Sequence record: MK524176.1 | Source of the DNA: Escherichia phage PHB11 | DNA: 64,000 bases | Reading direction: 5' to 3' (one strand) | In this document: piece after piece, positions 11,367 to 11,492 of the stretch | Layout: each line of letters starts with the position of its first letter | Numbering within the stretch: the stretch's first letter is position 1 | Position numbers and translations under genes: made by a program | The notes under the pieces: model-generated | Database searches by the model: none | What the model was told of the DNA's origin: nothing | Seen by the model: only the letters and a program-made list of their open reading frames with translations

Positions 11367-11492
11367 AGACCGTTTACAGCAAAACTTAAACAATCTATTT
11401 CTCCGGTAAAGAAAAGGCGAAGGTTCGATTCCTTCACTCGGCAGATGTCGAGTTGGTGTAATGGTAGCACTTAAGATGATAAACAACGGTCT
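11367..11492 (+). ncRNA. Stem-bounded element D with a permuted tRNA-like module (T-arm, loop-closed acceptor helix, D-arm); candidate Y-RNA-like RNA
   Basis: Arms AGACCGTT/AACGGTCT (perfect 8 bp). Inside, in order: T-arm GAAGG-TTCGATT-CCTTC, helix ACTCGGC-AGAT-GTCGAGT, D-like hairpin GTG-TAATGGTAG-CAC. No anticodon arm. Confidence 0.45.

Follow-up and report, generated by a model that had tools for sequence, protein, structure and literature searches.

Bacterial Y RNAs of the YrlA type consist of V, T, AS (acceptor-like) and D stem-loops held within a stem bearing the motif GNCGAA(N)G. They are encoded at most 4 kb from the gene of the TROVE protein Ro60 and on the same strand, and shorter Y RNAs accompany them (Chen et al. 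2014, PMC4201824). The acceptor loop is closed and uncleaved in Salmonella, and is cleaved by RNase P and CCA-tailed in Mycobacterium smegmatis (PMC4201824). In Thermus phage phiLo, the Ro60 protein binds two adjacent Y-like RNAs (Yrl1/Yrl2) and the host PNPase (PMC12135203). In Listeria phage CKA15, three non-coding RNAs are transcribed in very high abundance within 2 kb upstream of the Rsr-like gene CKA15_055 and on its strand; the authors speculated that they were Y RNAs without defining them (PMC12282133). Similarly, the PhageMaP study guessed at Y RNAs near gene gp130 of phage Bas63, perhaps some of the annotated tRNA genes, and did not locate them (PMC11482910). The present analysis concerns a 64,000-nt stretch (the window) of Escherichia phage PHB11 (MK524176.1), a Felix O1-type myophage of the genus Felixounavirus, and in it an element at 11357–11499 on the plus strand, composed of a basal stem and a complete circularly permuted tRNA-like domain. 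The element is a conserved RNA. It is probable, at about three chances in four, that the phage encodes here a YrlA-type Y RNA, one of four Y-like RNAs in its tRNA operon. On sequence comparison, the element is best explained as the RNA that would partner a divergent Ro60-like protein carried by phages, forming a distinct variant with its own recognition motif that has been missed by the Rfam thresholds and by the annotations.

The element is located in the gap between tRNA-Asp (11108–11185) and tRNA-Lys (11642–11717) of a 26-gene tRNA array. The 5′ strand of its basal module (11360–11374) comprises the P0 strand UUAC (11360–11363), an AGA internal loop (11364–11366) and the P1 strand AGACCGUU (11367–11374), while the 3′ strand (11485–11497) comprises the P1′ strand AACGGUCU (11485–11492), a single G (11493) and the P0′ strand GUAA (11494–11497). 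The 4-bp outer helix P0 is separated from P1 by the AGA/G internal loop, and the pairing of both strands was seen in the alignments. The P1 strands are the 8-nt complementary arms AGACCGTT and AACGGTCT with which an earlier note, made from the DNA letters, had bounded the element, and they are present in the sequence exactly as described there. P1 is followed by the single-stranded motif UACAGCAA (11375–11382), a candidate protein-recognition element positioned where canonical Y RNAs have GNCGAA; its CAGCAA portion is nearly invariant in 20 aligned units from distant phages. Next comes the V or anticodon-arm-like hairpin UUUCU-CCGGUAA-AGAAA (11398–11414; 5 bp and a 7-nt loop) and, after a 4-nt variable loop, the T-arm GAAGG-UUCGAUU-CCUUC (11419–11435). 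The acceptor-like helix ACUCGGC-AGAU-GUCGAGU (11436–11453; 7 bp with a 4-nt closing loop) and the D-arm GUGU-AAUGGUA-GCAC (11456–11470), with four pairs including one U-G and with the equivalents of A14 and G18G19, complete the domain. The earlier note had these three arms in the right order with ranges displaced by one base (the T-arm at 11418–11434), and the hairpin it gave as GTG-...-CAC (11455–11469) is real and better drawn as GTGT-AATGGTA-GCAC. Its statement that there is no anticodon arm proved wrong, as the Rfam tRNA model aligned the hairpin at 11398–11414 as the anticodon arm; with this V-arm-like hairpin present, the element matches YrlA more closely rather than less.

The order of the halves proposed in that note, with the 3′ half of a tRNA before the 5′ half and the acceptor closed by a loop, was evident in the sequence, and the halves re-joined in tRNA order were called tRNA-Thr(GGU) by ARAGORN. 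This indicates a cloverleaf that is circularly permuted as a whole and opened where the D stem meets the anticodon stem, which is the entry point of the basal helix. No tRNA in standard order was called at the locus, again as the note had it, either among the 26 tRNAs found by ARAGORN in the window or among the 24 found by Rfam at gathering thresholds; the Rfam tRNA model gave a partial match to the anticodon arm, variable loop and T-arm (22 bits, below threshold). Over the whole window, Rfam at gathering thresholds reported nothing but tRNAs. The minimum free energy (MFE) fold gave the proposed structure with a folding energy z of −1.54, which is not significant alone; hence, the case rests on the comparison with other phages. 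Two candidate features were rejected. The helix P2 (11385–11389 with 11471–11475), predicted by the MFE fold as the equivalent of the anticodon stem, was dropped from the models as it was 68% paired in Ounavirinae and shifted in register in Mooglevirus. The GGCGAAG at 11416–11422, the sole match to GNCGAAG, was not accepted as a Ro60 motif as it is in the wrong place (variable loop and T stem) and not conserved.

The presumed partner is a 471-aa protein encoded at 8935–10350 on the plus strand, the element starting 1007 nt after the stop of this open reading frame (ORF) on the same strand. The protein matched DUF2828 and DUF7788 in Pfam and phrog_850 (‘RNA-binding protein’) in PHROGs, and it gave no Pfam match to TROVE or vWA_Ro60, both of which were returned for gp220 of mycobacteriophage Bxz1. 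Neither the protein nor a profile of 40 sequences retrieved anything relevant when searched against PDB sequences. An AlphaFold2 model built from the 40-sequence alignment (predicted local distance difference test score, 86) showed helices over residues 28–263 followed by an alpha/beta domain, in keeping with a ring of helical repeats and a vWA domain whose MIDAS (an adhesion site that depends on metal ions) is intact. In a fold search with this model, the top 11 PDB matches were all Ro60/TROVE structures, aligned over the full length (E 3e-9 to 1e-6; template modelling score 0.55–0.66), among them Thermus phage phiLo Ro60, Xenopus Ro60 and Deinococcus Rsr. The Ro60 relationship was visible by fold comparison only. 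The MIDAS residues D279-x-S281-x-S283, T349 and D381 were invariant in the family. By this modelling, the predicted protein has the Ro60 fold. The vWA/MIDAS gene noted earlier at about 1 kb upstream, in connection with Ro60/Rsr partners, is thus borne out in its predicted fold and MIDAS, but in Pfam it belongs to DUF2828/DUF7788 and not to TROVE. By position, the gene is orthologous to Bas63 gp130 (bas63_0130), which has been described as structurally Ro60-like and as countering the Ppl defence system (PhageMaP preprint, PMC11482910). The Listeria protein CKA15_055 belongs to the same family. DUF2828/DUF7788 proteins were found in 709 phage records, including KVP40, Campylobacter, Listeria, Staphylococcus, Enterococcus and Bacillus phages, and 95 mycobacteriophages in which the protein carries the annotation ‘Ro-like RNA binding protein’.

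About 250 Ounavirinae records carry the element. A 456-nt stretch around it is 96–99% identical to scores of Felix O1-type phages, and the gap is present with matching synteny in Suspvirus and Mooglevirus phages at 74–90% identity. In a sequence-based alignment of seven Ounavirinae phages from three genera, the T-arm was invariant and the D-arm nearly so, with flanks falling to 74–85% identity. The acceptor helix occurred in three pairing versions (ACUCGGC/GUCGAGU, ACACGU/GCGUGU and ACCCUUC/GAAGGGU); it was 100% paired, three pairs being changed on both sides, and the covariation in homologues to which the earlier note had looked was therefore found across the three genera. To extend the comparison to distant phages, a structural alignment of 20 units (A6) was bootstrapped via Infernal, as MAFFT placed the 3′ halves of the distant units wrongly. 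In A6, 93% of cells were paired as against 64% in shuffled alignments and 40–45% with the partners slid, and none of 500 shuffles equalled it. Changes on both sides were seen in 29 of 33 pairs, with seven of seven acceptor pairs and seven of eight P1 pairs covarying. The D-arm was 100% paired in both alignments; the T stem covaried among distant phages and its loop was conserved. The V or anticodon-like hairpin was kept as well (80% paired in Ounavirinae and 83% in A6, with all five pairs changing on both sides). Some family members have no acceptor helix yet keep the T/D elbow, which suggests that the elbow is the selected part.

The association of the RNA with the protein gene was evaluated in a distant set of 65 loci with relatives 39–46% identical, together with four named phages (69 loci, 865 kb). 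A hand-written, sequence-independent descriptor (T-arm, AS and D-arm with the stem and GCAA) found six non-tRNA instances among the 65 distant loci, all on the strand of the gene, where about 0.5 was expected per strand. These instances shared a basal module consisting of a helix followed by (U)UNCAGCAA on the 5′ strand. One further descriptor match (L056) was discarded as a tRNA-dimer false positive, a kind of artefact against which Chen et al. have warned (PMC4201824), and the descriptor was superseded by covariance models. The model R1, built from the seven Ounavirinae sequences only, gave full-length matches in distant phages of up to 61 bits, and 53 of its 55 matches were on the strand of the gene. 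With the model R2, rebuilt after the 20-unit structural alignment, all 86 matches (E ≤ 1 in 865 kb) were on that strand, and a non-tRNA match at E < 0.01 was present in 20 of the 69 loci, in most cases no more than 250 nt from the gene, upstream or downstream. The element itself scored 148.5 bits with R1 and 114.8 bits with R2 as a training sequence. Two units outside all training sets showed the complete architecture together with CAGCAA: one in Klebsiella phage FBKp34, located between the gene and its tRNA array (R2, 87 bits), and one in Mycobacterium phage Rumpelstiltskin (L090), starting 97 nt past the gene (R2, 66 bits).

Further RNA features were seen beside Ro-like genes of the distant loci. 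Four metagenomic phages contain arrays of three to five tRNA-module units there (L027, 4081–5887; L074, 7569–8538; L089, 4087–5246; L046, 7938–8295). In FBKp34 (L091), a 114-nt ‘tRNA-Asp’ of GenBank at 10003–10136 matched the Rfam tRNA model with a large insertion (47.7 bits), was not called by ARAGORN, and matched R2 with 31 bits at 10040–10136; it may represent either an insertion-bearing tRNA or one more Y-like unit. In Listeria phage List-36 (L093, 7959–16187), the Ro-like gene is near genes for a metal-dependent phosphohydrolase, an RtcB ‘tRNA splicing ligase’, an RNA ligase and a phosphoesterase, an RNA-repair neighbourhood resembling the bacterial rsr-yrlBA-rtcBA operon; R2 matches at this locus were weak (22.6 bits at 7699–7771). 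A 250-kb metagenomic phage (L083) has, some 2.3 kb downstream of its Ro-like gene, a transfer-messenger RNA (tmRNA) that ARAGORN called at 9710–10199 (tag peptide EEVELAVAA).

In layout, the element resembles YrlA (RF02553; Salmonella, M. smegmatis and Bxz1-type mycobacteriophages), in that a basal stem formed by the 5′ and 3′ ends encloses V, the T-arm, a closed AS and the D-arm, and the tRNA-invariant nucleotides of the T-loop and D-loop are kept. Like YrlA, it is close to and on the same strand as the gene of a ring-plus-vWA protein of the Ro60 type, with shorter Y RNAs devoid of the tRNA domain alongside. The partner belongs to a different family (DUF2828/DUF7788 as against the TROVE/vWA_Ro60 of Pfam for YrlA), and the element, unlike YrlA, is embedded in a tRNA operon. 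Bxz1 was used as a positive control: RF02553 found the T-AS-D core upstream of gp220, a TROVE plus vWA_Ro60 protein in Pfam, in a layout identical to that of the element. This YrlA itself scored just 32.5 bits, which shows that the gathering threshold of 69 bits is strict, and two relatives of the element gave full-length RF02553 matches of 39.6 and 38.2 bits against that threshold. Conversely, the match of R2 to the Bxz1 YrlA was limited to the tRNA-like core, and the Bxz1 stems carry GGCCGA(A/G), not CAGCAA. By these cross-matches, the tRNA-like effector module is common to both families, and the putative protein-docking module changes together with the protein. The YrlA-type assignment made earlier is supported, the layout being that of RF02553 on Bxz1, with the corrections that the GNCGAA motif is absent and that the score stays under the RF02553 threshold.

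Three further Y-like units, common to the basal design and without the tRNA module, were identified in the window on the plus strand. Unit A (10678–10761; R2 42.8 bits, E 3.5e-7) fills the spacer between tRNA-Glu and tRNA-Met and has P0 UGAC/GUCA, the AGA/G loop, P1 AGACCAA/UUGGUCU and the UACAGCAA motif. Unit B (10845–10921; 42.4 bits, E 4.3e-7) fills the spacer between tRNA-Met and tRNA-Asn, with P0 UUGC/GCAA, the AGA/G loop, P1 AGGCCGU/ACGGUCU and the motif UGCAGCAA. Unit C (11267–11354; 34.4 bits, E 2.7e-5), positioned directly 5′ of the YrlA-like element, was not in the training set and is kept across genera; it has P0 GAGC/GCUC, the AGA/G loop, P1 AGACCAA/UUGGUCU and the motif AUUCAGCAA. 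P0 covaries among the four units of the window (UGAC/GUCA, UUGC/GCAA, GAGC/GCUC and UUAC/GUAA), P1 follows the pattern AGRCC.../...GGUCU, and the motif ends in CAGCAA. On the 64-kb window, R2 detected these four units and three weak tRNA-dimer artefacts and nothing more. Units A to C are comparable to the YrlB/Yrn2-type RNAs (PMC4201824) and to Yrl1/Yrl2 of phiLo (PMC12135203), which are likewise short stem-bulge-stem RNAs beside a Ro60 gene and have a stem in common with the longer Y RNA. The likeness to phiLo extends to the phage setting, to several copies per locus and to the proposed hijacking of a host nuclease. It differs in that phiLo has the CGAA motif and not CAGCAA, and its protein is a canonical TROVE Ro60 of solved structure for which RNA binding has been demonstrated, whereas the present system is known from sequence. 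Two sigma-70-like promoters (TTGACA-17-TAATAT and TTGACA-18-TAAAGT, each with 10 of 12 consensus positions; consensus matches only) are placed at 10368–10488 on the plus strand, between the protein gene and the array of tRNAs and Y-like RNAs, and no plus-strand terminator-like site was found downstream of them in the stretch scanned up to 11700. The exact filling of two inter-tRNA spacers and the promoters without a downstream terminator would imply co-transcription with the tRNAs and release by tRNA processing.

Several observations weigh against a Y RNA partnership of the element with the Ro60-like protein. A detectable unit within 6–8 kb was present in just ∼30–45% of the distant loci, and the matches in KVP40 and the Listeria phage were weak; the RNA–protein partnership may not be universal, or the model may still be too narrow. 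The YrlA basal motif GNCGAA(N0–1)G is not present in the basal stem of the element (5′ strand AGACCGUU-UACAGCAA), which has CAGCAA instead, and RF02553 gave no match to the element of the window either at gathering or at E ≤ 10. The covariation counts of A6 (29 of 33 pairs) rest on an alignment that had itself been fitted to the model. The phenotype of the PhageMaP Δg130 mutant was complemented by the gene alone, and the study is silent on a need for RNAs (PMC11482910). Accordingly, the element is an RNA that would work like YrlA but is not a member of YrlA by the criteria of that family, and its binding to the partner protein is predicted.

The alternatives bear on the same data. The units could act in cis within the tRNA operon, as spacers or as processing elements such as RNase III, RNase E or RNase P sites, with no tie to the Ro60-like protein. 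This would fit the position of the window units inside a tRNA array, A and B exactly filling spacers, and the Ro-like gene adjoins tRNA arrays in several other phages too. In five positive loci (L027, L090 Rumpelstiltskin, L045, L071 and L075), however, the unit is beside the gene and no tRNA genes are present within 13–17 kb, which indicates that the RNA follows the protein gene and not the tRNA arrays. A full tRNA-like elbow and the sequence-specific CAGCAA also exceed the needs of a cleavage site, and we consider a purely processing role improbable. A slightly less likely explanation is that the element is a free-standing tRNA decoy that soaks up a defence protein which cleaves or senses tRNAs; it would then be near the gene because of a shared role in RNA conflicts and not because of binding. 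In favour of a decoy, the element mimics a tRNA completely, some units have only the T/D elbow left, and phage tRNA regions have been linked with evasion of tRNA-targeting defences (cited in PMC11482910). A decoy would nevertheless leave unexplained both the basal stem and CAGCAA, which are common to three units without a tRNA part, and the very close placement beside the protein gene in different phyla.

It is also conceivable that the locus is a functionless, decaying remnant of two tandem tRNA genes, formed by the 3′ two-thirds of one copy and the 5′ third of the next. The element is in a tRNA array, its un-permuted form is a good tRNA-Thr(GGU), as expected from tandem duplication and loss, and R1 and R2 weakly match true pairs of tRNAs. 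When the un-permuted sequence was compared with the 26 tRNAs of the phage, the similarity was generic only and no donor tRNA could be named. Covariation already contradicts decay: the T and D arms remain invariant between flanks of 74–85% identity and the acceptor is kept by compensatory changes. The same design moreover recurs in phages of Actinobacteria and Proteobacteria, bounded by a conserved stem and motif that are foreign to tRNAs, and a remnant is thus very unlikely.

Permuted genes of other kinds are known. In the circularly permuted tRNA genes of Cyanidioschyzon merolae and in two-piece permuted tmRNA genes, the 3′ half is encoded before the 5′ half, and the products mature to functional molecules with free acceptor ends. 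For these genes and for the element alike, a likely origin is a tandem duplication after which the outer parts were lost. The element differs from them in its closed acceptor, in an anticodon loop that is not conserved, and in an opened junction that holds a conserved stem of the protein-binding type. A functional permuted tRNA gene, in which cleavage of the acceptor loop and joining of the ends, or use in two pieces, would give a decoding tRNA-Thr(GGU), can be argued from the acceptance of the un-permuted sequence by ARAGORN and from some GenBank records that call a 131-nt tRNA-Thr(GGT). The acceptor loop also starts with NCCA in Moogle (GCCAAACA), L027, L046, L074 and L089, so that closed and NCCA-starting loops among the relatives parallel the closed and cleaved forms of YrlA. 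On the other hand, the V or anticodon-like loop varies at orthologous positions (CCGGUAA, CUGGUAA, CUAUAAA and ACUUUCA), which argues against decoding, and the window element has C at the position of U33. Its acceptor loop, AGAU, has no CCA, and some relatives lack the acceptor helix. To our knowledge, no bacterial pathway for circularising permuted pre-tRNAs has been described. A decoding function is therefore hardly credible, and the un-permuted tRNA fold bears on the origin of the element and not on its present function.

Public records label the region of the Y-like RNA in conflicting ways: as minus-strand ‘hypothetical proteins’ covering the element in Bas63 (bas63_0137 and bas63_0138), as a 131-nt tRNA-Thr(GGT) in REP5 (L001, 574–704), or as ‘tRNA-pseudo’ in Si3. 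These annotations look like artefacts of the tRNA-like module. A genuine small protein gene at the minus-strand 50-aa ORF 11334–11486, which overlaps the element and corresponds to bas63_0137, a hypothetical protein in Bas63 and other records, can practically be dismissed, as its start codon is TTG, frameshifts and stops interrupt it in SUSP1, ESh22, Silverhawkium and Moogle despite conservation of the DNA, and the acceptor-loop indels in the Ounavirinae alignment are not multiples of three. In comparison with the guess made in the PhageMaP study, the Y-like RNAs described here, next to the same gene in a near-identical phage, are in unannotated or mis-annotated spacers and not in the annotated tRNA genes.

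Other features were observed around the element. Directly 3′ of it and abutting tRNA-Lys is a third structured RNA (11493–11641, plus strand) with a basal helix of ∼23 bp and inner hairpins, for which RNAalifold on the seven Ounavirinae phages gave 48 pairs, nine with compensatory changes. Its apical hairpin CAGAC-CUUAAGCAA-GUCUG recalls the AGAC/GUCU and GCAA signature; it had no match in Rfam and was not scored by R2. Upstream, the block 11214–11270 (plus strand) is nearly 100% identical in three genera, exceeding the conservation of the flanks (alignment A2, columns 29–110), and contains the hairpin GAGAGGGC-UAUUUA-GCCCCUC and a second pairing, CCUUAAAGAG...CUUUAAAGG. A small HNH endonuclease-like ORF (weak Pfam HNH match) is present within the tRNA array at 13232–13645 on the plus strand, and in phage mistaenkt (L007, 1–193) a ‘putative HNH homing endonuclease’ is annotated elsewhere in the array. 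The differing array sites suggest that mobile endonucleases shuffle the region.

With the element taken as a YrlA-type RNA, a mechanism can be proposed. The four RNAs would be transcribed together with the tRNAs from the putative promoters just downstream of the Ro60-like gene, and excision of the neighbouring tRNAs by RNase P and 3′-processing enzymes would free the units. The basal helix (P0, AGA/G loop and P1) and the single-stranded CAGCAA may form the docking site for the ring-shaped 8935–10350 protein, as the stem and GNCGAA do for canonical Ro60. The elbow, closed acceptor and anticodon-like hairpin of the long unit could then recruit a host factor that recognizes tRNA shape to the protein, or keep it from its targets; candidates would be nucleases, enzymes of RNA modification or processing, and immune effectors. 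By orthology with the Bas63 protein, which is needed against Ppl, the resulting ribonucleoprotein would act on RNA metabolism or in defence evasion during infection. A more specific and still tentative proposal, which we regard as possible rather than likely, is that the Ro60-like protein and the Y-like RNAs constitute a phage anti-defence ribonucleoprotein, in which the tRNA-shaped domain lures or tethers a host immune or RNA-decay factor (the lead being Ppl via Bas63 gp130). In the relatives with NCCA loops, RNase P might cut the loop and yield a two-piece, CCA-ended tRNA mimic that enters tRNA-specific pathways.

Ro60 and Y RNAs form a conserved and poorly understood RNA surveillance system, and the present finding supplies a candidate for the missing RNA of the large, separately classified DUF2828/DUF7788 family, whose members occur in therapeutic phages and in others that are well studied. 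The existence of such RNAs had been suspected, without their being located, in two recent papers; the candidates are now placed at exact coordinates, and in a phage (Bas63) where the protein has an anti-Ppl genetic phenotype. The result corrects the annotation of the region as hypothetical proteins, pseudo-tRNAs and intron-containing tRNA-Thr, and it provides a covariance-model seed for a family that Rfam misses. If the anti-defence reading is true, it would define a second, phage-centred branch of Ro60/Y RNA systems with a CAGCAA code instead of GNCGAA, present in more than 700 sequenced phages, including Felix O1, KVP40 and therapeutic-type Listeria, Campylobacter and Staphylococcus phages.

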